Below the pieces are notes generated by a model. That model did not search any database and was not told where the DNA came from. It saw only the letters and a list, made by a program, of their open reading frames with translations. From a virus (Duplodnaviria > Heunggongvirae > Uroviricota > Caudoviricetes): a DNA stretch of 42,407 nt. Shown here one piece after another: positions 1,663 through 42,407 of the stretch (positions are counted from its first letter, which is position 1; each line of letters begins with the position of its first letter). The stretch lies in the IMG/VR virus record IMGVR_UViG_2565956608_000007, positions 1 through 42,407 of that record, one strand, 5' to 3'. The translations under genes were made by a program, and so were the position numbers.

Positions 1663-1692
1663 GCTGGCGGGAGTTGAACTCGCGTCCGAAAT
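1663..1692. repeat. attL core: 30-bp copy of the ssrA 3'-region sequence (GCTGGCGGGAGTTGAACTCGCGTCCGAAAT)
   Basis: 29/30 identical to 41355-41384, which lies inside the intact ssrA gene; about 120 bp beyond the integrase stop. Confidence 0.65.
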
Positions 1693-1814: not shown

Positions 1815-2987
1815 CTACAGCGCGGCTGAAATCGCGGTTTTACCGTCATATTCAGCCAGGTATTTACCGTAGTTGCGGAATATCATTTCCGGCCCTTTGT
1901 GGCCCATCTGTCCGGCAAGCCAGAATAGGTTAACGCCCTGGCTAATATGCTTGGTGGCGAATGTGTGCCGCGTCTGGTACGGGTTACGATAGCGCACGCC
2001 AGCTTTTTTCAGGGTCGGCACCCATGCTTTTTTACGGATAGCGTCGGCGTTCGCCCAGGGGTCTCCCGTTTTCGGGTCGCTGAATATGAACTCACTTTTC
2101 ATGAAGGTGTATTGCTTCTGCGCCTGCAGGGCCGCCAGCGCCTCACTGTTCAGCTCCACCTTTCGGGTACCGGCTTTTGTCTTGGTGCCTTTAAGTACCC
2201 CTACGACACTGGCCGCCTGAACGTGGGCTGTGTTCGCGATGGTGTCGAGATCAGGCCAGCGCAGCGCGCACAGTTCGGAGCTCCGCAGACCGGTATTGAA
2301 AGCAAAGCGGAACAGGTTTTCCCATTCCGGGTACCTGCAGCTCTGGTAAATGGCGAGGGTCTCCGCTGGCGTGAACGGGTCAACCTCGTAATCGTCGGCG
2401 CTCGGGCTGCTGTCGATCACGTGGTACCGGCTGGCGCTGACGAGGGTTACCGGGTTAATGGTCAGCAGGCCATCCGTAACAGCTTCATCGATGGCGCTGC
2501 GCAGAAATGAAAGGTTATTCCTGGTCGTTTTCAGTTTTGTTTTCCGGCTGGCTATCCAGTTTTTAAGGACCGCTGGCGTCAGTTCTGACACGTGGAGTTT
2601 ATGCAGGGCTGACAGCGCCGACAGGCATTTTTCATAACCGTTGATAGTCGACGGGGACAGGTTGCGGTTCTGGCAGATTTTCAGGTACTCGTCCAGGTAA
2701 GACTTTATGTTTTTGGTTTTCTTCACCACCCCGAACAGCTCCAGTTTTTTGGAGTTGGGGAAATATTTCGCATATTCAAAGGTGCCACTGACGATCTGGT
2801 TTTGTATCTCCCCGAGCAGGCGCTCGGCGTACTTAACACCGCGCGCGTTTGCTTCCATTTTGGAGAGGGGCTCCCGGCACAGAACCCCTTTGTATGTGAA
2901 AGTGATAACCAGAGTGTCGCCAGTTTTATGCTGGCGGATGGTTACTCCTCTTGGGAGAGATAATGATCCTTGTTCTTTCTTGCCCAC
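1815..2987 (-). CDS. int: tyrosine integrase (lambda-type site-specific recombinase)
   Basis: 390-aa ORF with C-terminal R..HxxR..Y catalytic signature (RHTFATKHI ... RNYGKY); 3' end abuts attL. Confidence 0.9.
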   Translation of the reverse strand: MGKKEQGSLSLPRGVTIRQHKTGDTLVITFTYKGVLCREPLSKMEANARGVKYAERLLGEIQNQIVSGTFEYAKYFPNSKKLELFGVVKKTKNIKSYLDEYLKICQNRNLSPSTINGYEKCLSALSALHKLHVSELTPAVLKNWIASRKTKLKTTRNNLSFLRSAIDEAVTDGLLTINPVTLVSASRYHVIDSSPSADDYEVDPFTPAETLAIYQSCRYPEWENLFRFAFNTGLRSSELCALRWPDLDTIANTAHVQAASVVGVLKGTKTKAGTRKVELNSEALAALQAQKQYTFMKSEFIFSDPKTGDPWANADAIRKKAWVPTLKKAGVRYRNPYQTRHTFATKHISQGVNLFWLAGQMGHKGPEMIFRNYGKYLAEYDGKTAISAAL

Positions 2988-5077: not shown

Positions 5078-5509
5078 TTAAATCTTGTCGGCTTGCTTGC
5101 AGATGGTTTCTTGCAAGTCGTCTAATTTTTCATAAACGATAGTTAGCGTACCGATAGCCGACAATTCCGGAGGCATACAATCCATAGCGTTGGATAAAGC
5201 CATTCTGCAATTGCCAATATCCGCAGACCATGAATTAAGTTGATTGGAAGTTATAATGCTTGTTGGCTCTGTAAAATCACCACACTGCTCGTTTCCTGAA
5301 ATGAGCCACAGAACATCAGAATGAAGAATGTTAGCCAATTGGATTAACTGGTCAGCAAACGGAACAGTTTTTTCCGTTTCCCAGTTGTTAATGGTTTCGG
5401 TTGTTAAACCAAGATGATCAGCCAAAAAATCCTGAGACAGTCGAAGCGAAGATCTTTGATTTAATATTCTTTTGCCGATGGTTTTGGCTACGGTGATTTG
5501 AGTATTCAT
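5078..5509 (-). CDS. HTH (XRE-family) DNA-binding protein, first gene of leftward early operon
   Basis: 143-aa ORF with N-terminal helix-turn-helix (LRLSQDFLADHLGLTTETINNWE); preceded by operator-like palindromes. Confidence 0.7.
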   Translation of the reverse strand: MNTQITVAKTIGKRILNQRSSLRLSQDFLADHLGLTTETINNWETEKTVPFADQLIQLANILHSDVLWLISGNEQCGDFTEPTSIITSNQLNSWSADIGNCRMALSNAMDCMPPELSAIGTLTIVYEKLDDLQETICKQADKI

Positions 5510-5552
5510 TTCATTGGCTCCGTTGTTTGCCGATGAATGAACTTTAAGTCAT

Positions 5553-5572
5553 GCAATAACTTATTGCAATAA
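5553..5572. promoter_or_regulatory. OL-like operator: overlapping palindromes GCAATAAcTTATTGC and TTATTGCAATAA
   Basis: Perfect 12-bp palindrome at 5561-5572 and 15-bp near-palindrome at 5553-5567 upstream of the leftward operon; the TTATTGCA motif recurs once in the cI-cro intergenic region (6457-6464). Confidence 0.5.
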
Positions 5573-5669
5573 CAAAACTTATTTTTCTTTTGCGATTTAG
5601 TTTAATGCATTGATTTTTTTGATTAAATTTTGTTATTAAACTGCATACTTACAGCTACAGACAAAGAAA

Positions 5670-5689
5670 AAGCCGCTTAAAAGCGGCTT
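5670..5689 (-). terminator. Rho-independent terminator downstream of the repressor gene
   Basis: AAGCCGCTT/AAGCGGCTT inverted repeat, followed on the minus strand by a T-rich tract. Confidence 0.5.
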
Positions 5690-5710
5690 CAAAAGGTGGG
5701 GTGTTGAAGG

Positions 5711-6409
5711 TTAGAGCCTATTGTAATTGATTGATTCATGCATTATGGCTTTACCCATCACGTAAAGGTCATCTTGGTTTTCTTCCGTGATATACCATTT
5801 CTCATATGCCGGATTATCCGATAAGACTGCCAGCCTGTTTCCCTGCATCTGGAGACGTTTTAGGTGAAATGTTTTACCAAAAACAAAAACATACACACCA
5901 TCCGTTAGAAAGTGTCGGACGGAAATGTCTACGAAGACACGATCACCGGAATTGAACGTGCTGGCCATGCTGTCGCCATTGACGGTCATTACTTTTACGA
6001 CATCTTCACTACGATTCCCGAAGAGGGATTTTGCATGTTGAGTCGTGAACTCAATAGCGTGTAAAACCTCCACATATTCTGAAAGCATGAACGTGCCAGG
6101 CCCTGCACTCACTGAAAGGTCAAGAACCTCGACCCTGAATATGCCAGCGTTATCCTTTACCTCCCTTTCGGGCATGGTCTCTATCACATAGCCCTGTCTA
6201 TGAGGCACATGATTTTTTCCAGTTGATAGCCATTCAGGGCTCACACCCAGCGCATTAGCAATCTCAACCAACTTACGTGTTGTGTTGGTTTTGCCTGCAA
6301 CAAGACGCCAGATAGCTGGTTGCGAAACCCCAACTTTCATCGCTAATTCTGCCTGTGTAAGGCCTGCGTCAACCATCGCTTTTTGAAGACGATCTGAGAA
6401 TGTGTTCAT
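5711..6409 (-). CDS. cI: CI-like prophage repressor (HTH + S24 autopeptidase domain)
   Basis: N-terminal HTH (LTQAELAMKVGVSQPAIWRL) and C-terminal S24 motifs (GDSMAS ... FHLKRL); divergent from Cro-like gene. Confidence 0.85.
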   Translation of the reverse strand: MNTFSDRLQKAMVDAGLTQAELAMKVGVSQPAIWRLVAGKTNTTRKLVEIANALGVSPEWLSTGKNHVPHRQGYVIETMPEREVKDNAGIFRVEVLDLSVSAGPGTFMLSEYVEVLHAIEFTTQHAKSLFGNRSEDVVKVMTVNGDSMASTFNSGDRVFVDISVRHFLTDGVYVFVFGKTFHLKRLQMQGNRLAVLSDNPAYEKWYITEENQDDLYVMGKAIMHESINYNRL

Positions 6410-12465: not shown

Positions 12466-12682
12466 GTTTCCCCTCCTTCTGAGAGAACTCACGGCAATGA
12501 AGTATTGACCGGCGGAATGATTTCGGCGTAATTTGTTTGTGTGGTGAATCCTTTCTAAGCGAAAGGGCGTTCCAGTCAACTGCTATCTGCAGGTATGCGC
12601 GCGGCTTTGCTGACTGGGGTAGAGTCACCGGGAGGCACCCGGCACCATGACAACAACAATACAAGTTTCAAATTCCTTGAGA

Positions 12683-12710
12683 GCCTGCCATAAAACGCAG
12701 GCCTTTTTTT
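12683..12710 (+). terminator. Rho-independent terminator
   Basis: GCCTGC-loop-GCAGGC followed by TTTTTTT. Confidence 0.55.
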
Positions 12711-12860
12711 ATGGTTTTGCAAACTGCTGCTACGCTTTGAGTTGTGGGAAGTAACTGAATGCCCGGTGGTTCTCCTGGACCGATAGTGAATCAGCCGATA
12801 CAGCTTCACCTCTGAGCATAAGTCTTACTCACACCTACCTTACAAATAGTCAACTCATTA

Positions 12861-29217: not shown

Positions 29218-29658
29218 ATGGCTACTTATTCTTTTATGGACGTCACGGCGTCCCTCTCCGGCCCGACCGGCGAGATTGATCTGGGCTACGGTTCCGCCAG
29301 TTCAGAGGAGGGGATCACTGTTGCAATGGGCGGCCCCAAAAATACCATGACCATCGGCGCTGACGGCGAAGTGATGCACAGCCTGCACGCGGATAAAAGC
29401 GGCACGGTAACCGTCAACCTGCTGAAGACCTCGCCGACAAACAAAAAGCTGTCGCTGGCGTACAACGCGCAGAGTCAGTCCTCAGGTACCTGGGGAAACA
29501 ACGTCATTGTGATCCGAAACAAGGTGAGCGGAGACATCATCACGGCGCGCAGCGTGGCGTTCCAGAAACAGCCGGATAACGCCAACGCTAAAGCCGGTAA
29601 TACGATGCCCTGGGTGTTTGACTGCGGCAAAATCGACCAGGTTCTCGGAGAGTTTTAA
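29218..29658 (+). CDS. putative tail tube protein
   Basis: 146-aa ORF between sheath and chaperone. Confidence 0.55.
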   Translation: MATYSFMDVTASLSGPTGEIDLGYGSASSEEGITVAMGGPKNTMTIGADGEVMHSLHADKSGTVTVNLLKTSPTNKKLSLAYNAQSQSSGTWGNNVIVIRNKVSGDIITARSVAFQKQPDNANAKAGNTMPWVFDCGKIDQVLGEF

Positions 29659-29661
29659 CAG

Positions 29662-30114
29662 ATGGAATGCTCAATCAAAGGCCACGATTACCGCGTGGCA
29701 AAACTCAGCGTTTTTGACCAGCTGAAAGTGACCCGCAAACTGCTGCCGGTGCTGGCGGGCATGATGTCAGATTTCGGGAGCATTCGCTCCCTTCTGCCTG
29801 CTGATGGCAAAATCGACACCGTGAAATTCGATCAGCTGAAACCGGTGTTTGAAACCCTGCTCCCGCGTATCGCTGAGGAACTGTCTTCCCTGACCGAAGA
29901 AGACACCAACGCGATTATTCATCCTTGCCTGGCCGTGGTATCACGCAAGCACATGGACGGATGGACGCCGGTATTCAACAGCGGTCAGCTGATGTTCGAT
30001 GATATCGACCTGCTGACGATGCTGCAGCTGGTGGCGCGGGTGGTCGCCGATTCACTGGGAAATTTTTTGCCCGTGAGCCCTACCAGCGCGACGCCGGGCC
30101 AGCCTCAGGGTTAA
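29662..30114 (+). CDS. tail assembly chaperone (short, in-frame product)
   Basis: 150-aa ORF between tube and tape measure genes. Confidence 0.55.
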   Translation: MECSIKGHDYRVAKLSVFDQLKVTRKLLPVLAGMMSDFGSIRSLLPADGKIDTVKFDQLKPVFETLLPRIAEELSSLTEEDTNAIIHPCLAVVSRKHMDGWTPVFNSGQLMFDDIDLLTMLQLVARVVADSLGNFLPVSPTSATPGQPQG

Positions 30115-30302
30115 CCCTCAACAGCCTGCCTGACGGGCTGTCTTATCTCCTTGACCCGGTTGACGCCGGGTTAATCCCTTATTACGCGCTGAAGGATGGA
30201 TCTGTCGATCTGTGCGATATCGCGCTGATGAATGACCACCTGGCCGTTAAAGCTGACAACCAGCGCCGTATAGAGAAATGGAGAGAGGATAATGAACGCT
30301 GA
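29662..30302 (+). CDS. tail assembly chaperone, putative -1 frameshift-extended isoform
   Basis: The -1 frame is open from 30003 to the stop at 30300-30302; slippery A_AAT_TTT / T_TTT_TTG at 30060-30069; extension ends 11 nt into the tape measure gene. Confidence 0.4.
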
Positions 30303-32301
30303 GACTATTAAAGATTTCCTCGTCTCGCTCGGTTTCGATATCGACGAAGCAGGCGCGGAAAAGTTCGATTCAGTCCTCGCCGGTACGACCGCAAACGCTA
30401 TCAAAATGGGGCTGGCCGTCGAAGGCGCCGCGCTTACCGTGGTGGCCTTTACGGCTAAGATCGCCTCCGGTCTGGATAATCTCTACTGGGCGTCACAGCG
30501 CACCGGCGCGACGGTTCAGGGGATTCAGTCTATTGGCTATGCGGTTTCGCAGGTGGGCGGCAGCGTTGACGCGGCGCGCACCTCTCTGGAAAGCCTCTCC
30601 CGGTTTGTTCGTAACAATCCCGGCGCGGAAGGCTTCCTGAATCGCCTGGGCGTACAGACCCGTGACGCCAGCGGCAACATGCGCGACATGGCCGCTATCT
30701 TTACGGGCGTCGGCCAGAAGCTCAGCAGCATGCCGTATTACCGGGCTAACCAGTATGCGCAGATGCTGGGCATTGACGAAAATACCCTCATGGCGATGCG
30801 CCGGGGTGTGGGCGGTTTCTCCGGGCAGTACAGCGCAATGGCGAAAGCTATCGGCTTCAATGCTGACGAGGCGGCCAGAAGCTCAAACAAATTCATGACC
30901 TCCCTGCGCGAGTTCGGCGCGATGGCAGGCATGGCCCGTGACAAAATCGGTTCTAATCTTGCTGGTGGTCTGGCGGGTTCGCTGGACACGCTGCGCCGCC
31001 ACATCCTAGATAACTTCCCGCGCATCGAGCAGACCCTGACGAAAGCCATAAAGGGCATTCTGGCGCTCGGGGACATTATAGGGCGGCTGTTCTTCCGGCT
31101 TATTGAGGGGACATCCAGCCTTATCACCTGGTGGCAATCGCTGGATAAGCAAACGCGGGAGCTAATCTCGTTGTTCGGCGCGCTGACGATTGCGCTGCGC
31201 ATTCTGAACAGTACGTTCTGGATGTCGCCGATTGGCCTCATTACCGCGCTGGCGGCGGGGATTGCCCTTCTGTGGGAGGACTATCAGACCTGGAAGGAAG
31301 GCGGGGACAGCCTGATTGACTGGGGCAAGTGGAAGCCGGAAGTCGACGCCGCGCTGAAGATGGTTCGTGACCTTAAAACGACCGTTAACGAACTGGCGAA
31401 AGCGCTGGCGAAACTGCTCAACATTGACCCTAAATCATGGTCCCTGAAGTGGGATTTCAGCAACTTCATCGACCAGATGGGCGAGTTCAGCAAAATGCTG
31501 AATATGATTGCCGACCTGCTCAACGCCATTAAAGATGGCCGCTGGGCTGATGCCGCCAGCATTGGCAAACAGATGCTTAATCAGGGTAGCGAAAATCCGT
31601 CAGCGATGCCGATGGTAACAGACAGCGCTAACAGTGCCGCTGACTGGATTCAAGATAAGTTTGGTGTCGATCCTCGTAATGTTGGTCGGTGGATAAAAGG
31701 GAGATTTGGCGATGATGAGCCTGAACAGCTCGGCCAGTCAGTCAAGCGGCCACAGCCAACTAAAGCAGGCTCTGAACTGCTGGGATGGATGCAACCGATG
31801 CTTACCAACCTGGAACAGCTCTACCGACTTCCGGAAGGTTTGCTGCGCAGTGTGGCCATCACGGAATCGGGCGGTAATCAGTTCGCCGTTTCAGGCGCTG
31901 GCGCTAAAGGTCTGTTTCAGTTTATGGATGGTACAGCGCGTGACATGGGGCTGCGCGGGAATGATGTTTTCGACCCGGAGAAGGCCGCGCAGGCAGCCGC
32001 AAAGTATCTTTCACAGCTGCTGCAGGCGAACGGCGGTGACCTGAGCAAAGCGCTGGCCTCTTATAACTGGGGGATCGGGAACGTGCAGAAGCACGGGATG
32101 GCCCTTATGCCTCAGGAAACCCGAAACTACATTCCGAAAGTGTTAAGCAATATGCCTGCGCCCGGGGCTCAGGTACAGCAACAGAACACCTATCACATCT
32201 ACGGTGGTGGTGATCCGCGTTCTGTTGGTACCGAGGTCGAGCGCCGCCAGCAGTCGGCAAACGCTCAGGTTATGCGCGGCAATCAAACGAAGGTGGGCTA
32301 A
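30292..32301 (+). CDS. tail tape measure protein with C-terminal lytic transglycosylase (SLT) domain
   Basis: 669-aa ORF; SLT motifs ITESGGNQFAVSGAGAKGLFQFM ... YNWG. Confidence 0.8.
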   Translation: MNAETIKDFLVSLGFDIDEAGAEKFDSVLAGTTANAIKMGLAVEGAALTVVAFTAKIASGLDNLYWASQRTGATVQGIQSIGYAVSQVGGSVDAARTSLESLSRFVRNNPGAEGFLNRLGVQTRDASGNMRDMAAIFTGVGQKLSSMPYYRANQYAQMLGIDENTLMAMRRGVGGFSGQYSAMAKAIGFNADEAARSSNKFMTSLREFGAMAGMARDKIGSNLAGGLAGSLDTLRRHILDNFPRIEQTLTKAIKGILALGDIIGRLFFRLIEGTSSLITWWQSLDKQTRELISLFGALTIALRILNSTFWMSPIGLITALAAGIALLWEDYQTWKEGGDSLIDWGKWKPEVDAALKMVRDLKTTVNELAKALAKLLNIDPKSWSLKWDFSNFIDQMGEFSKMLNMIADLLNAIKDGRWADAASIGKQMLNQGSENPSAMPMVTDSANSAADWIQDKFGVDPRNVGRWIKGRFGDDEPEQLGQSVKRPQPTKAGSELLGWMQPMLTNLEQLYRLPEGLLRSVAITESGGNQFAVSGAGAKGLFQFMDGTARDMGLRGNDVFDPEKAAQAAAKYLSQLLQANGGDLSKALASYNWGIGNVQKHGMALMPQETRNYIPKVLSNMPAPGAQVQQQNTYHIYGGGDPRSVGTEVERRQQSANAQVMRGNQTKVG

Positions 32302-32888
32302 TGGATATTCTCTCTACGCTCTTTCAGCAGCAGAGCCGGAAAATAGGGATGATTGTCCCCAGTGTGGTTGTTTCTGAAAAGCATACCGACACGCTGGAGA
32401 TAACAGAGCACCCTGTCGAGGTCGGGGCTGCCATTGCCGATCATGCCTACAAAAAACCGTCTGAAGTGGTGATGGAGGTCGGTTTCGCTGGTGGTGGATC
32501 GTTGCTGGATTTTGCCAGTAACCTGACGGCTACCAGCCTGCTCGGTCTGAGTCCCCAGCAGACGTATCAGGAGATACTCGACCTGCAGGCGAGCCGTATT
32601 CCTTTCGATGTGGTTACGGGCAAACGGCTGTACAGCAACATGCTGATCCGCGCGCTGGAAGTGACGACAGACAAGACAACCGAAAACGTCCTGTCTGCCG
32701 TCCTCACCCTGAGGGAGGTTCTTATCTCGCAGACGCAGCAGATCACCGTCGCGGATAAAACCAACATGAAGGACGGGGCCAGCACGTCGTCGGTACTGAA
32801 TACCGGCAACAAAACCACAAAGCCGCCAAATACCTCGCTGTTGAAAAGCATTACGGGTAATGGGGCATCATTACTGGGGCTCGGCTAA
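32301..32888 (+). CDS. tail / baseplate protein, function unassigned
   Basis: Start overlaps the tape measure stop; operon position. Confidence 0.5.
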   Translation: MDILSTLFQQQSRKIGMIVPSVVVSEKHTDTLEITEHPVEVGAAIADHAYKKPSEVVMEVGFAGGGSLLDFASNLTATSLLGLSPQQTYQEILDLQASRIPFDVVTGKRLYSNMLIRALEVTTDKTTENVLSAVLTLREVLISQTQQITVADKTNMKDGASTSSVLNTGNKTTKPPNTSLLKSITGNGASLLGLG

Positions 32889-33190
32889 TGGCAATTCAGG
32901 AAATCCCACTGACAGCGGATAACCAGCAATTCAGCATCATCCTGGCGGGGACCACCTGGCGGATTAGCATCATATGGCGCGATCTGTACTGGATTATGGA
33001 CCTGCAGAACGACAGAGGGGAGCCGGTAATCTCCGGTATTCCTCTCGTCACCGGCGCTGACCTGCTGGCGCAGTACGCCTATATGGGCCTCGGATTTAAG
33101 CTGGTGGTGGTCTGTGACGACAGTACACAGGATTATCCGACGAAAACCGACCTGGGCGGCCGCAGTCATTTACTGGTATCAACGGAGTAA
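32888..33190 (+). CDS. tail / baseplate protein, function unassigned
   Basis: 100-aa ORF, overlapping start/stop. Confidence 0.5.
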   Translation: MAIQEIPLTADNQQFSIILAGTTWRISIIWRDLYWIMDLQNDRGEPVISGIPLVTGADLLAQYAYMGLGFKLVVVCDDSTQDYPTKTDLGGRSHLLVSTE

Positions 33191-33192
33191 GC

Positions 33193-34254
33193 ATGTCACA
33201 GAACTGGATGAGACATTTCGAGTTGCAGCTCCTGGACGAGAACGGGCAGGGGATTGAACTCAGCGATTTTAAAGTAACCTTTACGATCGACTGGTTCAAC
33301 ATCAGCAGCGCGTCACGGGTGGGGACGTTCAAAATTTACAACCTGTCTGCAGATACCTCCAACCGTATAACCGGCAAAGAGTTTTCGAAAGTTCGGCTGA
33401 TTGCCGGTTACGACGGTATCGCGCCGGAGGTATCGGCAAGCGACGTCGGGACCGTTCGCGAAGTCGACGCGGCGGACGTGGGACAGAGTGATGGCCGCAA
33501 CTATGGACTTATTTACAGCGGTGAAATTCGCTACTCGGTCACCGGTAAAGACAGTCCTATTGATTCCTACGTCCTGATTCAGGCAGCCGATACGGATCTG
33601 GCTTTTGCCACCAGCATAACCTCGCAGACGCTGGCGGCCGGTTACACAGTCGCAGACGTGAACCGCGCGCTGATGAAAGACTTCGAGGCCAAAGGCGCGA
33701 CCGAAGGCCTTACCCCTGAAATGCCTGCTACCGTATTCCCCCGTGGCCGGGTGCTGTTCGGCATGACACGGCACCTTATGGATAACGTGGCCGGACAATG
33801 TGGCGCAACATGGCAATTCGTGGATGGCCAGCGGCAGATGGTGGCGAATAACGAATATGTTCACGATGCGATTGTGCTCAACAGCGCCACCGGGCTTATC
33901 GGCATGCCGCAGCAGACCATCGGCAACGGCGTAAACGTCCGCGCGCTGATTAACCCGAACATCCGGGTTAACGGGCTCATTCAGCTGGATCAGGCTTCCG
34001 TGTATCGTACCGCGCTGTCGAACAACGATATCGCTATGGCTGGTGGGCAGATCACCGACCAGAACACGGACGGAAATATCACGCTAAGCGGCACCACGGC
34101 GCAACCTGCCAGTATCGCAACGGATGGCGTTTATATTGTGCGCGGGATTATGTACACTGGCGATACAAGGGGCCAGGCGTGGTACATGGATATGATGTGC
34201 GAAGCGCGTGGCGCGGCGGATCTCCGCACTCAGGACTCGCTTAATCGGGGGTAA
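33193..34254 (+). CDS. putative baseplate hub / tail protein
   Basis: 353-aa ORF before the spike gene, in the position of the Mu-type hub gene. Confidence 0.45.
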   Translation: MSQNWMRHFELQLLDENGQGIELSDFKVTFTIDWFNISSASRVGTFKIYNLSADTSNRITGKEFSKVRLIAGYDGIAPEVSASDVGTVREVDAADVGQSDGRNYGLIYSGEIRYSVTGKDSPIDSYVLIQAADTDLAFATSITSQTLAAGYTVADVNRALMKDFEAKGATEGLTPEMPATVFPRGRVLFGMTRHLMDNVAGQCGATWQFVDGQRQMVANNEYVHDAIVLNSATGLIGMPQQTIGNGVNVRALINPNIRVNGLIQLDQASVYRTALSNNDIAMAGGQITDQNTDGNITLSGTTAQPASIATDGVYIVRGIMYTGDTRGQAWYMDMMCEARGAADLRTQDSLNRG

Positions 34255-34256
34255 AT

Positions 34257-34598
34257 TTGAAAGCCTTAGCCATTTTAATTGTTGCCTTTATGTCATTTGG
34301 GGCATCAGCAAGCGGGTACACCGCTTATTGTGGGCCTTACACCATCACTGCAAGGTTGGGTGAAATGGACATAATTAACGGTGAACGCGTCACATCGCAG
34401 AAAATTACAAATCTTGGTGCTGATGGCATTAAGATTGATATGGGGCTTATGCCTGCTAAAGATGGCAACAATTATGGCTTTGAATACATTCGCCGTCCGG
34501 GTACCGAAACGCGATTCCTGAATGTCCAACTGCTGCAGAATAGCATGGACGCGCCGAAAGTTATCGGCTCTTTCCCATGCAAAAAAGTTTCTGATTAA
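34257..34598 (+). CDS. secreted protein of unknown function (moron inside tail cluster)
   Basis: Signal peptide MKALAILIVAFMSFGASA; visibly AT-rich relative to flanking tail genes. Confidence 0.55.
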   Translation: MKALAILIVAFMSFGASASGYTAYCGPYTITARLGEMDIINGERVTSQKITNLGADGIKIDMGLMPAKDGNNYGFEYIRRPGTETRFLNVQLLQNSMDAPKVIGSFPCKKVSD

Positions 34599-34613
34599 AG
34601 TAATTAATGGACT

Positions 34614-35036
34614 TTGTTTATGGCGGTCAGCAGGTCAAAGAAAATAGTTTTATTAGTTGTCATTGTTGTAGGTTATTTAATTGGAAACCATAAAAACAAT
34701 GAAACTGACAAAGTGTCTGGTAATACCGAAGCCCCTGAAAAGGCTGCAGCGCAACAATCAAGTAATACTCCTACTTTGTCAGAGGATGTTCTTTTAAAGA
34801 ATGAAGTGATATTTACCTGTAAGGATATCGCCCGATCTTCTTTATCGTTGCCGGACACATTCGAAACCGAACAGACTGAAAGCGGGATCGACGAGAAAAA
34901 TGGAAAGCAAGTTTATTACTTTACCCTGCATTTTTCTGGAATGAACGCCTTCAATAGTCGAATCACTCATACAATAGAGTGTTACGGGACGGTAGGAGAC
35001 AAAAACCGAACTGTTACCTATAAAACATTCAACTAA
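34614..35036 (+). CDS. membrane-anchored protein of unknown function (moron inside tail cluster)
   Basis: N-terminal transmembrane helix (KKIVLLVVIVVGYLIG); AT-rich; followed by its own terminator. Confidence 0.55.
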   Translation: MFMAVSRSKKIVLLVVIVVGYLIGNHKNNETDKVSGNTEAPEKAAAQQSSNTPTLSEDVLLKNEVIFTCKDIARSSLSLPDTFETEQTESGIDEKNGKQVYYFTLHFSGMNAFNSRITHTIECYGTVGDKNRTVTYKTFN

Positions 35037-35057
35037 CCCGCCACCCGGCGGGTTTTT
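35037..35057 (+). terminator. Rho-independent terminator after the moron pair
   Basis: CCCGCC-ACCC-GGCGGG followed by TTTTT. Confidence 0.6.
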
Positions 35058-35076
35058 GCTTTCTGGAGCCTACCAA

Positions 35077-35829
35077 ATGGCAGTATCTGACCAGACCCGC
35101 AGCGGCGACCTTGCCGAAACATTCAAATCTGAGCGGGACACGACAAAAAACCAGATCCGCGTCGCTTTGCCTGGTATCGTTCAGTCATTCGACCCTGACG
35201 CGGTGACGGCGGTTGTGCAGCCTGCTATCCGCTCTGTTGAAACCGATAACGACGGCAACCGCGTTACCAAAAATTACCCGCTGCTGGTGGATGTGCCGGT
35301 GGTATTTCCGCGCGGCGGCGGCTGCACGTTAACTTTCCCGGTAAAAGCCGGCGATGAATGCCTGGTGATTTTTGCCGATCGCTGCATCGATTTCTGGTGG
35401 CAGAACGGCGGGGTGCAGGAGCCTGTCGACGACCGGGTGCATGATTTATCGGATGCGTTCTGTATCGTCGGGCCCCAGTCACAGGCGCAGAAAATCAGCG
35501 GAATCAGCACGGGGGCCGCTCAACTGCGCAGCGACGATGGAAGCACGTTCTTTGAGCTCGACCCCACTACGCAGAAAATTAAAATCGTAGCGCCTGGCGG
35601 TCTGGATGTAGTTACTCCACTGGCCGACTTCTCGGCGAAAGTTACAATTCACGGGCTCCTGTCCTGGCTGGGTGGAATGGTGGGTTCAGTTGCTTCTGGC
35701 GTTGCATCCAAAATCACTGGCGCTGTCGAGTTTATCGGTACCGTTAAAGCTAACGGCAAGTCAATTGATGATACGCACACTCACGGCGGCGTACAGCACG
35801 GCACCAGCAACACAGACGGGGTGAACTGA
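35077..35829 (+). CDS. baseplate central spike protein (Mu gp45-like)
   Basis: Motif PLLVDVPVVFPRGGGCTLTFPVKAGDECLVIFADRCID typical of baseplate spike N-domains; ATG at 35077. Confidence 0.65.
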   Translation: MAVSDQTRSGDLAETFKSERDTTKNQIRVALPGIVQSFDPDAVTAVVQPAIRSVETDNDGNRVTKNYPLLVDVPVVFPRGGGCTLTFPVKAGDECLVIFADRCIDFWWQNGGVQEPVDDRVHDLSDAFCIVGPQSQAQKISGISTGAAQLRSDDGSTFFELDPTTQKIKIVAPGGLDVVTPLADFSAKVTIHGLLSWLGGMVGSVASGVASKITGAVEFIGTVKANGKSIDDTHTHGGVQHGTSNTDGVN

Positions 35830-36182
35830 TGCGATACAGACGTGAAGACGCCGACGGTGATTACACCTTTGGCAGCGGCGATGATACCTGGCTGATTAAC
35901 TCACCGGAGGCCGTGGCGCAGGCGGTAAAAACGCGATTCGAATTGTGGTATGGGCAATGGTTTCTCGACACCACCGAGGGGACACCGTGGATTCAGTCCG
36001 TACTCGGTAAGCAGAAGCCGGAAACCTACAACCTGGCGATCCGTAAGCGCATCCTCGAAACGCGGGGCGTTAAATCCATTCTCTCTTTCAATACGACAGT
36101 GAACACTACGACGCGCCGCGTCCAGTTCTTCGCTGAAATCGACACCATCTACGGAATAACGACAGTAACCAGCGAGGCATAA
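35829..36182 (+). CDS. baseplate protein (GpW-like)
   Basis: 117-aa ORF between spike and J-like genes. Confidence 0.5.
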   Translation: MRYRREDADGDYTFGSGDDTWLINSPEAVAQAVKTRFELWYGQWFLDTTEGTPWIQSVLGKQKPETYNLAIRKRILETRGVKSILSFNTTVNTTTRRVQFFAEIDTIYGITTVTSEA

Positions 36183-37382
36183 ATGGCCCTCAATTTGGAC
36201 ACACTCGGCTTATCGGCAACGGTAACCGCTGAGGGGATCAGTGCGCCTGATTACCAGACGATACTCGATACCCTGACGAGCTATTTTCAGCAGATTTATG
36301 GCAGTGACGCTTATCTGGAGCCAGACAGCAAAGACGGCCAGATGGTGGCGCTGGTGGCGCTGGCTATTCACGATGCCAACAACACGGCCATCTCCGTTTA
36401 TAACTGCTTCTCACCTGCTACGGGTTACGGTGCAGCGCTGACGAGTAACGTAAAAATTAACGGTATCGCGCGCCGGGGGGCGACGAATTCTACCGTGGAT
36501 CTGGTTCTGACAGGTACTGCCGGGACGTCCATTACAAACGGTACTGTGAAGGACACGAATAACGTGATCTGGCGACTTCCTGCCTCGGTGACGATCGGTG
36601 TCGGCGGTACCGTGACGGTAACTGCAACCTGTTCAAACAGCGGAGCGGTTGCGGCGCTGGCTGGGACGATTACCACTATCAACACGCCGACCCGTGGCTG
36701 GGCTTCAGTAACCAACCCGGCGGCGGCCACCGTAGGCGCACCGGCGGAAACCGACGCAGAGTTGCGCATCAGGCAGGGGCAAAGCGTCGCTCTGCCCTCA
36801 CTCACACCGTTTGAAGGTGTCGACGGTGCGATCGCCAACGTTGCAGGCGTGACACGTCACAAGCTCTACGAGAATGATACTGGTGCAACCGACAGCAACG
36901 GTCTGCCTCCTCATTCCATTTCCGCCATCGTCGATGGGGGGGATGTTACCGAGATAGCCCAGACAATCAGGGGAAACAAAGGGCAGGGAACAGCCACTTA
37001 TGGGACGACATCTGTCACGGTACCGGACACCTACGGCAACCCACACGTGATCAGCTTTTCGCGGTCTACTGATGTGCCAATTTATGGACATATCACCCTG
37101 AAGGCATTCACCGGCTACACGTCGCAAATTGGCGTACAGATTCAGCAGGCCGTCGCGGATTACATCAACGGGCTGACCATCGGCGACGATGTGCTGCTTA
37201 GCAGGATTTATTCTCCGGCGAACCTCGGCGTAGTGAGTGGCGGCAATGCGCGCTACTACGACATACAGGAGCTGCTGATTGGCAAATCAGCCGGTAGCGT
37301 AGCGGCGGCAAACATCATCATCGCCTATAACGAATCCGCGTCGTGTAAACCCGAAAACATTGTTCTAACGGTGACGTCATGA
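36183..37382 (+). CDS. baseplate J-like protein
   Basis: 399-aa ORF, size and position typical of baseplate J. Confidence 0.7.
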   Translation: MALNLDTLGLSATVTAEGISAPDYQTILDTLTSYFQQIYGSDAYLEPDSKDGQMVALVALAIHDANNTAISVYNCFSPATGYGAALTSNVKINGIARRGATNSTVDLVLTGTAGTSITNGTVKDTNNVIWRLPASVTIGVGGTVTVTATCSNSGAVAALAGTITTINTPTRGWASVTNPAAATVGAPAETDAELRIRQGQSVALPSLTPFEGVDGAIANVAGVTRHKLYENDTGATDSNGLPPHSISAIVDGGDVTEIAQTIRGNKGQGTATYGTTSVTVPDTYGNPHVISFSRSTDVPIYGHITLKAFTGYTSQIGVQIQQAVADYINGLTIGDDVLLSRIYSPANLGVVSGGNARYYDIQELLIGKSAGSVAAANIIIAYNESASCKPENIVLTVTS

Positions 37383-38059
37383 GCAAGTACACGGACTTAA
37401 TCACCAACTATCACGCCACGAAGCCGAAATTTTTTGATCACGTCGACCTGAGCACGCGGCCACTGATTGATATCACTACCGCAACCCGGGGGCTGGTAAG
37501 CGCTTTCGATATTGATACCGCTGTCGGCGTCCAGCTCGATACGCTCGGCCTCTGGATTGGTCGCAGTCGCATTGTCAGCCAGCCGATAAGCGGCGTGTAT
37601 TTCAGTTGGGATACTGACGGGCTCGGATATGACCAGGGCGTATGGCAAGGCCCATATGATCCAGATGCAGGCTATACCACGCTGAGCGATACAACCTATC
37701 GCATCGTTCTTAAGGCAAAAATCGCCATCAACAACTGGGACGGCCGCAATGATTCGCTGCCTCCCATCCTTGACGCTGCAACTGCAGGCTCTGGCCTGAA
37801 GATGCAGATCGTCGACAACCAGGACATGACGATCTCGGTCTGGGTATTTCCCGAGACAGATATATCAAATGTGTCTCTCGAACTAATCGCCGCTATCAAA
37901 CAGGGCTATCTCACCGTTAAAGCAGCTGGCGTATGGGCCGGTGACGTGGAAACGCCTTCGGTAGAAACACCGTCAGAAGGCTCTAAATTCTTTGGCTTCG
38001 ACATGGACAACGAATATATCGCCGGATTTGATGATGGCGCATGGGGGAAATTACTGTAA
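37379..38059 (+). CDS. baseplate / tail protein adjacent to fiber
   Basis: 226-aa ORF overlapping the J-like stop. Confidence 0.5.
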   Translation: MSKYTDLITNYHATKPKFFDHVDLSTRPLIDITTATRGLVSAFDIDTAVGVQLDTLGLWIGRSRIVSQPISGVYFSWDTDGLGYDQGVWQGPYDPDAGYTTLSDTTYRIVLKAKIAINNWDGRNDSLPPILDAATAGSGLKMQIVDNQDMTISVWVFPETDISNVSLELIAAIKQGYLTVKAAGVWAGDVETPSVETPSEGSKFFGFDMDNEYIAGFDDGAWGKLL

Positions 38060-39177
38060 TGGCAATAAATAACTTTAAACCATTCGCGACAGCAGCGAAT
38101 GCTAACGTGATGTCCCAGGCTGACTGGGAAGGGCTTCCGGCTCTGCTCTCTGGTTTTACTTCAGGCAAGGCGGCCAGCGCAGAGGTAAATAAGGCAATCC
38201 GGCAGGCCAGCTTTATCGCGGCAGCGCTGGCGCAGTACACCGCCAACAAAAGTGGGCTGGATGTGCTTGATGATGCTGATTTGAACGGGTTCATTACCAA
38301 AATGACCACTGCATTTGGTAAGGATTTCCAGGCGCTGGACGCCACGCTAACAGCACTTGCCGGCCTCGCTACTGGAGCAAACAAGCTTCCGTATTTCACC
38401 GGGACAGATACCGCGGCACAAACTGACCTTACGCAGATCGGTCGGGACGTTATCGGTCAGACAACCGTGGCGAACCTTCTCACATACCTCGGTTTGGGAG
38501 ATGGCACAGGAAGGCTTATTAATGTCCAGACTTTTACGGCTAGCGGAACATATACCCCAACCGCCGGAACAAAATTTGTTATCGCTGAGGTTCTTGGAGG
38601 TGGCGGCGGTGGCGGCAGTAACGCGGCTACGCCAAGTTCAGGGGCGGCGGCAGGTGCTGGCGGAGCTTCAGGTGCCTATGCAGTTTGCAAGCATACACCG
38701 ACAGGGCCGGTAAGTGTTGTTATTGGTGCTGGTGGGGCTGGCGGAGTATCTACGGCAGCTGGTGCTGATGGTAGCACAGGCGGGACATCATCTTACGGCG
38801 CAGTATCAGCACCTGGTGGGCGTGGAGGCCCCAGAGGCGTGGCGTTTAATAACTTCCCTACGGGTGGAAACGTTGCGACTGGTTCATCTGGTGTTACTGG
38901 TTCAGTTATTGTTGGTACACCTGGTACCGGCGGATCATATGGCATTCTTTATTCAGATTCGAATGCTACAGGCGGCGGTGGAGCAAACAGTATTTATGGC
39001 GCAGGCGGAATTGCCATAACAATCAACAGCGGTGGATCAGGTACTTCACAAGGGGCTGATGCCAATGGTTATGGTTCTGGTGGCGGTGGTGCTGTTTCTG
39101 TGCATACGGCGACAGCATCCAGTTCACGTGGAGGCAATGGCACGCCAGGGATTGTAATTATCTGGGAGTACGCATAA
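38059..39177 (+). CDS. tail fiber protein with glycine-rich C-terminal region
   Basis: Conserved fiber-like N-terminus (MAINNFKPFATAANANVMSQADWEGL); C-terminal half dominated by GG/GxG repeats; TAATG overlap with upstream gene. Confidence 0.75.
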   Translation: MAINNFKPFATAANANVMSQADWEGLPALLSGFTSGKAASAEVNKAIRQASFIAAALAQYTANKSGLDVLDDADLNGFITKMTTAFGKDFQALDATLTALAGLATGANKLPYFTGTDTAAQTDLTQIGRDVIGQTTVANLLTYLGLGDGTGRLINVQTFTASGTYTPTAGTKFVIAEVLGGGGGGGSNAATPSSGAAAGAGGASGAYAVCKHTPTGPVSVVIGAGGAGGVSTAAGADGSTGGTSSYGAVSAPGGRGGPRGVAFNNFPTGGNVATGSSGVTGSVIVGTPGTGGSYGILYSDSNATGGGGANSIYGAGGIAITINSGGSGTSQGADANGYGSGGGGAVSVHTATASSSRGGNGTPGIVIIWEYA

Positions 39178-39584
39178 TGAAAGAATTTGCAGTAGTTAAA
39201 GATGGTATGGTGGTTAATATTATTTTGTGGGGTGGCGAAGATAACGGCTTTGCGAAAGATATTGATGGTGAACTTATCGCAATTCCAGAAGAGATTCAGG
39301 TCGGTATTGGCTGGAGTTATGAAGGTGAGAAATTTGCATCCCCTCCTGAACCGGATAAAACTAAAGAGCAGCTAATTCAGGAAGCAAACCTTGAAAAAGA
39401 GGGGCGCATAAATTCAGCCAATGATTACATGAACAGCAAGCAGTGGCCTGGCAAAGCTGCGATTGGTCGTCTAAAGGGTGACGAATTGGCCCAGTACAAC
39501 CTTTGGCTTGATTACCTGGATGCACTGGAAGCGGTTAATACATCTACTGCACCAGATATCACCTGGCCTCAGCAACCAGAATAA
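39177..39584 (+). CDS. tail fiber assembly protein (Tfa-like chaperone)
   Basis: C-terminus AAIGRLKGDELAQYNLWLDYLDALEAV typical of Tfa chaperones. Confidence 0.7.
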   Translation: MKEFAVVKDGMVVNIILWGGEDNGFAKDIDGELIAIPEEIQVGIGWSYEGEKFASPPEPDKTKEQLIQEANLEKEGRINSANDYMNSKQWPGKAAIGRLKGDELAQYNLWLDYLDALEAVNTSTAPDITWPQQPE

Positions 39585-39590
39585 AAACAT

Positions 39591-39615
39591 GGGGCGCAAG
39601 CGCCCCTATTTTTCT
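39591..39615. terminator. bidirectional terminator between convergent tfa and acyltransferase genes
   Basis: GGGGCGC/GCGCCCC inverted repeat flanked by A-run on one side and T-run on the other. Confidence 0.6.
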
Positions 39616-39624
39616 CGTTGGTTG

Positions 39625-40668
39625 TCATATTAAAGCTTTTCGTAAAAGCGTCTTCCCAATTAAAACACCTTTTCGCTCTACAGTTTTATGCGCAAAATAA
39701 CAAACTATAAATAACAATGTTAATATTTGAATGTTGCTGTTGATATATGGGATTTGTAATTTTGAAACCACTAGTGACAAAGTATACCAAATCCAGTTAT
39801 GGAACAAGTATACAGCATAAGTCATTTCAGACAGTAAATTGCATGCTTTGGATTCAATGAATTTATCTCTAAACAACCACGAAACAAGGAAAATAATAAC
39901 TCCTGTAAATGCGTAGTTGTACTGGCCCCAGAATGGATTTATTTTCTCAATGAGAGATAAATGCAGATAGAACATAATTACGATGGATGCTAAAGCAATA
40001 ACCCGATTAACTAACTTATGCTCTACAAGATACACTACTACACCGATAAACAAAAATGGCGTATACAATGTAAAGTAAGCATTATGAAAATCATTAGCCA
40101 CAGGGAAAGGGTTAATGCTGGATATAAAAAACGATACAACAAGAAGGAGAACAGTCAAAACGTTTCCTTTGTTTATTATACCAGCTTTTTTAACTAATCC
40201 CATAAACACGTAGAACATCATTTCTATTCTTAGTGTCCATTCTACGCCAGCTAATGAAAGTGGAGTGTTAAAGAAATCACCTATGAGCAAAAGTCTTGGG
40301 ATTAGTATAGTTAGAGGTGGAACACCAGCACCGTTATAATACTGAACTAACATTTCTGCAATAACTGCAAAAATGTATAAAGGATATATTCTAAAAATCC
40401 TTTTTAAATAAAATTCAAAAGTTGCTTCTTTTTGTAAAACGTGGGTTATGATATATCCTGAAACAAGAAAGAAGATTACAACCCCCATAGCCCCACCGAA
40501 ACTGGCATCGGCAAGTAGACCGTAAAATGATCTAAGTGTTACGTGGTTACTTGGATCGCTCGCCCACGAAGCTAAATCTTTGTTGAACTTGTGGCCTAAC
40601 ACCACAAGAGAGAATGCAAAGATACGCATGTAATCTAAAAAAAGAATTCTACGATTGTTCATTTTCAT
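39625..40668 (-). CDS. acyltransferase family 3 membrane protein (OafA/Oac-like O-antigen acetyltransferase)
   Basis: About 347-aa polytopic membrane protein with acyltransferase-3-type N-terminus (RILFLDYMRIFAFSLVVLGH); markedly AT-rich; located between tail genes and attR. Confidence 0.75.
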   Translation of the reverse strand: MKMNNRRILFLDYMRIFAFSLVVLGHKFNKDLASWASDPSNHVTLRSFYGLLADASFGGAMGVVIFFLVSGYIITHVLQKEATFEFYLKRIFRIYPLYIFAVIAEMLVQYYNGAGVPPLTILIPRLLLIGDFFNTPLSLAGVEWTLRIEMMFYVFMGLVKKAGIINKGNVLTVLLLVVSFFISSINPFPVANDFHNAYFTLYTPFLFIGVVVYLVEHKLVNRVIALASIVIMFYLHLSLIEKINPFWGQYNYAFTGVIIFLVSWLFRDKFIESKACNLLSEMTYAVYLFHNWIWYTLSLVVSKLQIPYINSNIQILTLLFIVCYFAHKTVERKGVLIGKTLLRKALI

Positions 40669-40809
40669 CAAAATCTTATTGTTGATGAGGCTATTTTATA
40701 GCATGAACAGCGAAATTCATAACAGGTTGGTGGTTGGGGTGGTGAAAAATCTCATCATGGAAGAAAAATCTGGCTGTCAGCGTTTATTAATGCTGGCAGC
40801 CAGCACATT

Positions 40810-41076
40810 TTACAGCCCAACCTGGCGAACTGTCGGGAACTCAGAAACCAGCCACATATCGGCCTCTTCAAACATATCCTCCAGCATGCGGTTGAGTTTT
40901 TCCCGATCGTTTTTGCTGGCATCGCTATTCAAGCCGTTCGCCTGCATCGGCTTCACCCTCACTTCGGCATCAGGGAAGATCTGGTGCACTCGCTTCGTCA
41001 GCTCAGCCAGGATAATCTCTCTGGCCCCTTCAAGTCCCTCTACATTTCGCTTGTCATAAACCAGTTCAACGAACAT
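40810..41076 (-). CDS. dinI: DinI-family protein
   Basis: 88-aa ORF resembling DinI (acidic C-terminus EEADMWLVSE); GGAGG ribosome-binding site; two LexA boxes upstream. Confidence 0.7.
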   Translation of the reverse strand: MFVELVYDKRNVEGLEGAREIILAELTKRVHQIFPDAEVRVKPMQANGLNSDASKNDREKLNRMLEDMFEEADMWLVSEFPTVRQVGL

Positions 41077-41095
41077 AAAAGCCTCCGGAAAACCA

Positions 41096-41135
41096 CTGTG
41101 GTTGTATACAGTATTTTTACTGTAAAAATAAACAG
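41096..41135. promoter_or_regulatory. two tandem LexA (SOS) boxes
   Basis: aCTGTggttgtatACAGta at 41096-41111 and taCTGTaaaaataaACAGtg at 41120-41135, both fitting CTGT-N8-ACAG; 20-60 bp upstream of the dinI-like start. Confidence 0.7.
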
Positions 41136-41195
41136 TGTCAAGGCATGGGCTGCGCGAGGAAGGGAAGTATTTTTGTTACCCTTAGTTACAAATAG

Positions 41196-41230
41196 AAAAA
41201 CCCCAGACCGTGAGATCTGGGGTTCTTTTA
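41196..41230. terminator. bidirectional Rho-independent terminator downstream of ssrA
   Basis: CCCCAGA-loop-TCTGGGG hairpin with A-run 5' and T-rich tract 3'. Confidence 0.55.
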
Positions 41231-41238
41231 AAGTGCAC

Positions 41239-41255
41239 GTGCATTTTACGTGCAT
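41239..41255. repeat. 17-bp direct repeat GTGCATTTTACGTGCAT (right arm)
   Basis: Identical to 1743-1759. Confidence 0.45.
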
Positions 41256-41347
41256 TTTTTTGTCTTTTCTCGGTCTGCGCTCTGTCTGGTCAGAGTCCGT
41301 AAGTAGCTGTTTTTATTGCCGCTGTCCGGTTGTAGTCCTATCAAAAG

Positions 41348-41710
41348 TGGTGGAGCTGGCGGGAGTTGAACCCGCGTCCGAAATTCCTACATCCTCGGTA
41401 CTACATGCTTAGTCAGTCTTTACATTCGCTTGCCAGCTGCGGACGGACACGCCACTAACAAACTAGCCTGATTAAGTTTTAACGCTTCAACCCCAGGCAG
41501 GGCTTCCACGCGATCTCTTTTGGGTTTGACCTCTCTTGATCCCCGTCCTAAGAGCGGAGGCTAGGGAGAGAGGGCTCTAAGCAGGTTATTAAGCTGCTAA
41601 AGCGTAGTTTTCGTCGTTTGCGACTATTTTTTGCGGCTTTTTACGAGGCCAACCGCCCCTCGGCATGCACCTTGGGTTTCGCAAATCCCGTCGAATCCAG
41701 AATCAGCCCC
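41348..41710 (-). ncRNA. ssrA: tmRNA (transfer-messenger RNA, SsrA)
   Basis: Minus-strand sequence begins GGGGCTGATTCTGGATTCGACGGG and ends ...GGTTCAACTCCCGCCAGCTCCACCA; 363 nt; directly downstream of smpB. Confidence 0.95.
41355..41384. repeat. attR core inside ssrA (GCTGGCGGGAGTTGAACCCGCGTCCGAAAT)
   Basis: 29/30 identical to 1663-1692. Confidence 0.65.
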
Positions 41711-41924
41711 AATGTGTAACGGTAAGTATACCAGATTTATGAGCAGCATGACTAGCCCAAAAGGCGTTATCATCCTGGAATTAGCGCCTGCATAGTATGA
41801 TTTTTTTTCGATTAAGCAATGGGATGGCTACATCTGTGTCAGATTTGACAGTCGATAAGATGTTCATTCGCGCCACCGGATAGGGAGGCGCGGTGAGGAT
41901 TTGATTAGTATCGCTTATATAGGT

Positions 41925-42407
41925 TTAACGGTGGGCATTTTTCATGATACGCGCTTTATCCACCTGCCATTCGCGTTCTTTGATATCTGAACGTTTATCG
42001 TGCTGTTTCTTACCTTTGGCGACGCCGATTTTCACTTTGCACCAGGCATTTTTCCAGTACAGGGAGAGCGCCACTACGGTATAGCCTTCTCGATTGACGC
42101 GACCGTACAATGAGTCCAGTTCGCGCTGGTTGAGAAGTAACTTGCGGGTACGGGTAGGATCGCACACCACATGCGTGGAGGCCACAGCCATTGGCGTGAT
42201 GTTAGCGCCAAACAGAAATGCCTCTCCGTCGCGCAGAAGGACATAGCTGTCGCTGATATTGGCTTTTCCTGCGCGCAGGGATTTAACCTCCCAGCCTTGC
42301 AGGGCAAGTCCCGCTTCGAACTCTTCTTCGATAAAGTATTCGTGACGGGCGCGCTTGTTAAGCGCGATGGTCGCTGAACCAGGTTTATGTGCTTTTTTCT
42401 TCGTCAT
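41925..42407 (-). CDS. smpB: SsrA-binding protein SmpB, complete
   Basis: 160-aa translation [58 protein letters not shown]... recognised as enterobacterial SmpB. Confidence 0.95.

Follow-up and report, generated by a model that had tools for sequence, protein, structure and literature searches.

The DNA examined here is a window of 42,407 nucleotides (IMG/VR record IMGVR_UViG_2565956608_000007, the whole stretch) that holds a prophage with an AT-rich gene near its right end, at 39625..40668 on the minus strand, coding for a 347-amino-acid membrane acyltransferase of the acyltransferase-3 (AT3) family. We consider it probable that this AT3-only protein is phage cargo that acetylates an envelope glycan, with the O-antigen as the leading candidate, and that it brings about lysogenic conversion and superinfection exclusion. 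The parts of this reading differ in strength. O-acylation of an envelope glycan, with consequences for a phage receptor or for antigenicity, is very likely; the O-antigen as the specific acceptor is a tentative choice, to which we would give slightly less than an even chance; and the designation as a lysogenic-conversion gene is plausible but unproven. Demonstrated below are an intact gene of foreign composition under purifying selection, the AT3 domain, motifs and fold of its product, the gene layout, and a linkage to receptor-binding genes that recurs among relatives; O-antigen serotype conversion is an inference.

The open reading frame (ORF) listing gives the gene as 39625..40671 on the minus strand, with 348 amino acids from a TTG codon; the first in-frame ATG is at 40668, the end coordinate used in the original prediction for this DNA, and yields the 347-residue product (alternative starts are TTG 40671 and ATG 40662). 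The polytopic acyltransferase-3 membrane protein which that prediction had placed at 39625-40668 is borne out by the ORF and by a full-length match to the Pfam family Acyl_transf_3 (PF01757), which aligns residues 10-324 with positions 2-317 of the 326-position profile (E=1.5e-25; score 90.4 bits, cut-off 31). RefSeq labels the protein 'acyltransferase family protein'. PF01757 was the sole match in the Pfam search of the 347-residue sequence, which returned no SGNH domain; this absence gives the protein the AT3-only architecture of Oac and not that of OafA/OafB. Thus, of the earlier description 'OafA/Oac-like', the Oac-like half holds and the OafA-like half does not.

The catalytic motifs of the family are intact. 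In an alignment of 30 homologues (42-88% identity), helix 1 carries D12-Y-M-R15 followed by H26 (the DxxR and R/K-X10-H motifs of the first transmembrane helix as defined in PMC7448272 and PMC12423673), with R15 and H26 invariant, and both FFLVSG of helix 2 (66-71) and R90-I-F-R93 of helix 3 (RXXR) are invariant as well. Mutagenesis has established that Oac, OacB and OafA require the R/K-X10-H, FFxxSG and RXXR motifs (PMC7448272, PMC8952252, PMC12423673). Further along the protein, where the family carries a glycine in helix 6 and an SxxxY motif in helix 9, the putative counterparts are G209, which is invariant, and S280xxxY284, which is found in the window protein but whose Y284 varies among the homologues; T283xxxY287 is invariant. 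The core fold comprises about 10 transmembrane helices, and the model predicts a resemblance to the solved acyltransferases HGSNAT and GWT1. These structures of the TmAT superfamily differ from the window protein in being eukaryotic, in having extra domains and other acceptors, and in sharing only 9-13% identity with it. Searches of PDB chains by sequence and of NCBIfam gave zero matches, and none of the PADLOC defence-system models matched at E<=0.01.

Among characterised enzymes, the closest parallel is Oac (OacA) of Shigella phage Sf6, together with the OacB/C/D group, all of them AT3-only proteins of ~330-350 amino acids like the one described here. Sf6 Oac and the window protein fall in the same family, PHROG 3333 ('O-acetyltransferase'), and the R-X10-H, FFxxSG and RXXR motifs are kept in both; PHROG 6705 ('647-aa O-antigen acetylase') matches residues 56-111 only. 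The gene order is also shared: in Sf6, a tailspike gene, a terminator, a convergent oac and int follow one another as their counterparts do in the window. The comparison with the location of Shigella serotype-conversion genes drawn in the original prediction is therefore apt, since Sf6 oac lies convergent behind the tailspike and next to int and both proteins belong to PHROG 3333. The two loci differ in that Sf6 has an endorhamnosidase tailspike and the window a myovirus fibre, in the GC content of the acyltransferase gene (0.42 in Sf6, 0.34 here), and in the right end of the window, where dinI stands between the gene and the attachment (att) site and int lies beyond it. The homology search against Oac that had been suggested as a check gave a divided answer, with the shared PHROG 3333 and a profile match (hhalign 95.6%) on one side and an identity of only 24% over 142 residues on the other. 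The profile match of the family to Oac (E=1e-8) covers the N-terminal 150 columns only; the corresponding values are 66% over 64 columns for WecH and 4.5% for OpgC. The shared PHROG family and the preference of the profile for Oac are a hint in favour of an acceptor of the lipopolysaccharide (LPS)/O-antigen type.

Other relatives by function or position place the gene more precisely. In Salmonella phage SEN34 (Brunovirus), which has the same backbone, the 'O-acetyltransferase' SEN34_29 occupies the same slot after the assembly gene; it lies on the opposite strand, is succeeded by an 88-amino-acid gene and then int, has a GC content of 0.32 and contains the AT3 motifs. It belongs to another AT3 lineage (27% identity over 187 residues), and the fibre tip and assembly protein of SEN34 also differ from those of the window; we found nothing relevant in the literature on the SEN34 acetyltransferase. 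OafA and OafB (GtrC family II) of Salmonella have the same essential residues in the first and third transmembrane helices, a location in prophages or their remnants, and a role in phage resistance (PMC7448272, PMC9558356), but in these fusions an 11th helix and a periplasmic SGNH domain are joined to AT3, whereas the window protein ends after AT3 at 347 amino acids. The chromosomal WecH and OpgC of E. coli are also membrane acyltransferases with AT3 alone, and their substrates are glycans of the periplasm or envelope (enterobacterial common antigen for WecH, periplasmic glucans for OpgC), as is proposed for the window protein; they differ from it in their native GC content (0.44-0.47), their core chromosomal locations and their weak profile similarity. 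The acyltransferase is the same kind of element as Sf6 oac, oacB/C/D, the phiV10 acetyltransferase gene and SEN34_29, and, judged by sequence, it is neither a close member of the Oac group nor an OafA-type fusion. The seroconverting coliphage Hf4s was considered as a further parallel and set aside: it uses a Gtr glucosylation cluster and has no AT3 gene.

The mechanism that we propose rests on what is known of AT3 enzymes (PMC9833829, PMC12423673). The gene would be a self-contained piece of phage cargo (a moron) made up of a promoter-like element, the ORF and a shared terminator. Its product would act as an Oac-type inner-membrane O-acyltransferase with ~10 transmembrane helices, into whose pore acetyl-CoA would enter from the cytoplasm; R15, R90 and R93 would bind CoA, and H26 would lie at the periplasmic face. 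On the periplasmic side, close to H26, the acetyl group would then be handed to a hydroxyl on a sugar of an envelope glycan while this glycan is exported or matures; the leading candidate acceptor is the O-antigen repeat unit. As the genomic context suggests, the modified glycan would be the receptor, or a shield of the receptor, of this and other phages. The lysogen would then be antigenically altered and guarded from superinfection, and virions, once released, would not be lost to sibling lysogens.

The layout around the gene fits such a unit. On the plus strand, a tail-fibre gene with a glycine-rich C-terminal domain (38041..39177; Pfam PF21722) is followed by a gene for a tail-fibre assembly protein (Caudo_TAP, 39177..39584; Pfam PF02413, E=5.5e-22), to which the acyltransferase gene is convergent; its predicted orientation opposite to the late operon was thus correct. 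On its other side a DinI-family gene (40810..41076, minus strand; Pfam PF06183, E=2.8e-23; PHROG 189) lies between the acyltransferase gene and attR, and ~270 nt of non-coding DNA separate dinI from attR. The gene therefore lies between the assembly gene and attR, as had been predicted, but does not directly adjoin attR. The ORF list also contains two further ORFs on the opposite (plus) strand, 40018-40197 and 40655-41059, which overlap the better-supported acyltransferase and dinI genes, and a scan of 38000-41347 against Rfam gave zero matches.

Another important point is whether the gene is transcribed on its own. Between the convergent genes, a GC-rich hairpin with T-runs on both strands (39591..39606) was found by the terminator scan as a bidirectional terminator (fold -20.1 kcal/mol, z=-4.0), and it is kept in DX6, BEN2908, L004 and L092, related loci of which the first three are described below. 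A consensus match to an extended -10-like element, TGCTATAAAAT, lies at 40693..40703 on the minus strand, ~25 nt 5' of the ATG. The same element is found ahead of the 87%-identical alleles in BEN2908 and L092, where dinI is missing, TAAAAT stands at the equivalent site in the context of a P2-like Citrobacter prophage, and the element is the probable promoter of the acyltransferase gene. Just past the dinI stop, a hairpin with a U-run (40770..40803, minus strand; fold -19.5 kcal/mol, z=-2.74) resembles a terminator; it was missed by the terminator scan, in which the loop was limited to 3-8 nt, and the TGCTATAAAAT element lies ~65 nt downstream of it. The preservation of this element in contexts with and without dinI, together with the terminator after dinI, argues that the acyltransferase gene is probably a separate transcription unit, that is, a moron: terminators and foreign composition are present, and the promoter takes the form only of a conserved extended -10-like element. 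For the same two reasons we downgraded co-transcription with dinI, although read-through into the acyltransferase gene from the SOS-controlled dinI promoter is possible. That promoter (TTGACA-17-AAAAAT, 41141..41113, minus strand) scored 10 of 12 matches in the promoter scan and is overlapped by two LexA-box-like sites on the minus strand (41094-41113 and 41118-41137), which are the two best matches to TACTGT-N8-ACAGTA in the window, with one mismatch each; because of these sites, the prophage dinI copy is probably SOS-regulated. GATC, read by eye, is absent from the 140 nt upstream of the acyltransferase gene, so there is no sign of Dam-dependent phase variation of the kind described for oafB and gtr. 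SOS-controlled cargo is again found beside an AT3 gene in an Enterobacter cloacae prophage (L088), where a perfect CTGT-N8-ACAG palindrome, ACTGTATGTATATACAGTAT, is located ~100 nt upstream of the AT3 homologue at 10001, between this homologue and divergent small genes plus umuDC.

The strongly AT-rich composition noticed in the original prediction is confirmed by measurement. The GC content of the gene is 0.341, and its GC at third codon positions (GC3) is 0.319, whereas the late region has a GC of 0.544 and the baseplate J gene a GC3 of 0.63. No other 1,044-nt stretch of the prophage is as poor in GC (prophage mean 0.513, standard deviation 0.051), and the gene is compositionally foreign to the phage. 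The ratio of nonsynonymous to synonymous substitutions (dN/dS) against the 87-90%-identical alleles is 0.125-0.13, at dS 0.43-0.62, which indicates that the gene is under purifying selection. Two further low-GC patches of the prophage, 4500-6000 (0.38-0.43) and 34500-35000 (0.40), may be additional cargo or variable genes; at the latter, the DX6 and BEN2908 relatives diverge from the window or lack the sequence (~34588-35016).

Evidence on function also comes from the contexts in which relatives occur. The protein database contains ~570 relatives at E<=0.001, from a clade with hundreds of members in Pseudomonas, Legionella and environmental bacteria. Alleles at least 85% identical to the window protein fall in clusters of 40 and 156 sequences. 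One homologue (99.7% identity, also listed as 100%) belongs to a phage with a Mu-type baseplate (L004), with the same order of fibre, assembly protein, convergent AT3 gene and dinI. In E. coli DX6, the same ssrA prophage is ~91% identical at the nucleotide level over the region, and the AT3 protein is ~90% identical; this allele (L001 6514-7557, minus strand) has an in-frame stop a few codons past the usual start, RefSeq starts the protein at an internal Met, and the allele may be N-terminally truncated or inactive. An 87%-identical homologue follows the assembly protein in a related prophage near dacD of the avian pathogenic E. coli (APEC) strain BEN2908. In P2-like prophages of Citrobacter the homologue (60%) is flanked by the assembly protein (gpG position) on one side and the sheath gene on the other; in an Enterobacter cloacae prophage (52%) it is convergent and directly behind a 655-amino-acid tailspike; and in Atlantibacter (45%) it is behind a tail fibre. 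A scan of genome contigs with the single window protein gave zero matches, whereas the 30-homologue alignment used as the query recovered relatives, among them the Legionella homologues described below. Homologues of 37-88% identity are also present at 13 loci on IMG/VR viral contigs. In 10 of these 13 the genes downstream of the homologue and convergent with it are fibre, tailspike or fibre-assembly genes, and one more has a fibre gene within 1.5 kb. The clade is thus linked to receptor-binding genes in at least five unrelated phage backbones. Within E. coli the gene is rare, with more than 50% of the query region present in only 6 of 5,426 complete genomes.

The link with receptor binding extends to joint movement. 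A single blastn match between the window and L004 covers a 2,645-bp block (38478..41121 in the window, 762-3403 in L004; 96.5% identity) composed of the fibre tip, the assembly protein, the acyltransferase gene and dinI with its promoter. Homology with SEN34 ends at 38493 and that with L004 begins at 38478, so that the interval 38478-38493 marks a recombination junction inside the tail-fibre gene: the upstream part is shared with SEN34-like phages, and the downstream part, encoding the C-terminal 233 amino acids, about residues 146-378, with the Mu-like phage. By these alignments, the exchangeable part of the fibre is the tip, from ~38478 onwards, and the 96.5%-identical block together with the break in SEN34 homology indicates that the receptor-binding tip and the acyltransferase gene moved together between unrelated myovirus backbones.

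These data raise the question of whether the acceptor is really the O-antigen. Several observations weigh against our preferred reading. Among the 120 best relatives, whether of the window protein or of the Legionella homologue, no named or characterised enzyme was found, and to this must be added the low identity to Oac given above. Homologues in Pseudomonas are stand-alone or beside an integrase fragment, outside O-antigen clusters. The promoter is a consensus match only, and the TGCTATAAAAT element was not listed by the consensus promoter scan. Phage cargo of many functions commonly inserts at the end of the late operon, which makes position weak evidence. A further difficulty concerns hosts: proteins in the cluster at least 90% identical to this one are assigned by name to E. 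coli, Enterobacter asburiae, Enterobacter kobei and Citrobacter freundii, and a prophage at ssrA in AP022628.1 (L138) is 99.81% identical over 12.1 kb (window 29625-41738), with an identical acyltransferase; the smpB gene of its host shares only 78% identity with that of E. coli, which places this host in another genus. This prophage points to recent phage transfer between genera, and a single O-antigen shared by all these hosts is unlikely. The presence of the same prophage in different genera suggests that the acceptor may be a widely shared sugar or glycan and argues against a narrow serotype specificity.

The strongest of the alternatives, which we nevertheless regard as doubtful, keeps the same chemistry and assigns it to another acceptor common to Enterobacteriaceae, with no serotype conversion. 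Candidates include enterobacterial common antigen, the LPS core, the reducing-end N-acetylglucosamine (GlcNAc) found in many undecaprenyl-linked units, colanic acid, periplasmic glucans and peptidoglycan. In addition to the host range and the Pseudomonas contexts just described, this alternative can draw on the linked fibre, which is short and glycine-rich and in which Pfam detected no depolymerase or tailspike domain, and on the AT3-only WecH and OpgC of E. coli, which act on conserved glycans (PMC9558356). It is opposed by the family profile, which matches Oac far better than WecH or OpgC, and by the Enterobacter, IMG/VR and other relatives located behind tailspikes, proteins whose usual targets are O-antigen or capsule. 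The differing AT3 cargo of SEN34 and the window in a single slot also resembles adaptation to variable acceptors. Moreover, chromosomal homologues in Legionella nautarum and L. fairfieldensis (~40% identity) adjoin rmlB/rmlA-like genes and genes of the DegT, GNAT and sulfatase families; neighbours of this kind are typical of surface-polysaccharide loci, and the rml-type sugar genes among them are a hint of an acceptor of the LPS/O-antigen type. A link between these homologues and Legionella Lag-1 was examined and rejected, as the 120 best relatives of the L. nautarum homologue include no Lag-1 name and no L. pneumophila.

A shared acceptor could also be combined with the block described above. 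The fibre tip, assembly protein and acyltransferase would then form a transferable 'bind-and-mask' cassette, in which the enzyme acylates a glycan shared across Enterobacteriaceae that the linked tip recognises (e.g. enterobacterial common antigen, the LPS core or a common reducing-end sugar) and not a serotype-specific O-antigen; the shared receptor is suggested here by the lysogenisation of different genera by the same phage. We consider this version unlikely. If true, it would describe a genus-crossing receptor-masking system built on an AT3 clade without a characterised member.

More distant from an O-antigen modification is the possibility, improbable in our assessment, that the position merely reflects a recombination or insertion hot spot at the 3' end of the assembly-protein gene and that the enzyme serves a host fitness trait unrelated to receptors, such as lysozyme or antimicrobial resistance or virulence. 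It is true that homology often begins in the 3' part of the assembly gene (from 39300 in BEN2908, from 39403 in the P2-like L094 and at 39419-39559 in 611R5), that dinI and umuDC cargo occur at the same ends, and that the Salmonella prophage SPC-P1, whose AT3 gene resembles one from Pseudomonas, has been associated with higher virulence in mice (PMC3022927). However, the linkage also holds for tailspikes and fibres without an assembly-protein gene, the fibre tip and AT3 gene travel as one block, and all characterised phage AT3-only proteins reviewed in PMC9558356 modify the receptor glycan of the phage itself. Finally, a silent or decaying gene with no current function, as might be suspected from very AT-rich DNA that is a likely target of H-NS silencing in E. 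coli, from the in-frame stop near the N-terminus of the DX6 allele and from the rarity of the gene in E. coli, is very improbable given the intact ORF and catalytic motifs, a dN/dS of ~0.13 and an identical protein in two genomes of different genera.

The ends and the host of the prophage that carries the acyltransferase were established by sequence comparisons, among them an alignment of the two ends. The attL core, a displaced 3' fragment of ssrA, is at 1663..1692, and the attR core, within the ssrA 3' end, is at 41355..41384; the two form a 30-nt direct repeat with one mismatch (97% identity), and homology of the left flank (glaH) with prophage-free E. coli stops exactly at 1692. An ORF of 390 amino acids just inside attL (1815..2987, minus strand) is the probable integrase gene by position and adjoins the dinI/acyltransferase end once the phage circularises, in agreement with the earlier placement of the acyltransferase gene at the att/int end of the circular phage. 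Beyond the prophage lie the transfer-messenger RNA (tmRNA) gene ssrA (41348..41710, minus strand, by tmRNA match) and smpB (41925..42407, minus strand). A contig of E. coli 908675 matches the right 12.8 kb of the window at 100% identity, and E. coli A36 matches the ssrA-smpB flank at 99.7%. For the structural genes, nucleotide identity is 90% with Yersinia phage YP3 and 83% with SEN34 of Salmonella. On these identities, E. coli is the host, with ssrA as the integration site, and the prophage is a SEN34-like (Brunovirus) myovirus.

Some additional features of the window were recorded. A second 30-nt direct repeat, 83% identical and with the core GTGCATTTTACGTGCAT, is present just inside both prophage ends (1740-1769 and 41236-41265); in the circular form its copies flank the att core, and they may be arm-type binding sites of the integrase. 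On the plus strand, the right copy also forms a hairpin resembling a terminator. In the early/regulatory region of the prophage, 12512-12714 (plus strand) matches the Rfam small RNA family STnc100 with 55.7 bits against a gathering score of 47. A low-GC stretch in the chromosomal flank (1001-1500, GC 0.356), non-coding or with small ORFs, between glaH and attL, is kept in prophage-free E. coli (99.8% identity to B2 strains).

What is new in detail is, as far as the searches indicate, an AT3 clade without a characterised member or a close full-length phage counterpart (tblastn of 50,697 phage genomes gave no full-length match above 25.3% identity), its linkage to receptor-binding genes in at least five backbones, and its movement as a block. 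If the gene acetylates a surface glycan, its lysogens in E. coli, Enterobacter and Citrobacter would differ from non-lysogens in antigenicity and phage susceptibility, which would be relevant to serotyping, glycoconjugate vaccines and the host range of phages used in therapy. Assignment of one substrate would carry over to the annotation of many genes of the clade, and the block transfer of fibre tip and acyltransferase makes it testable whether receptor binding and receptor masking travel together.

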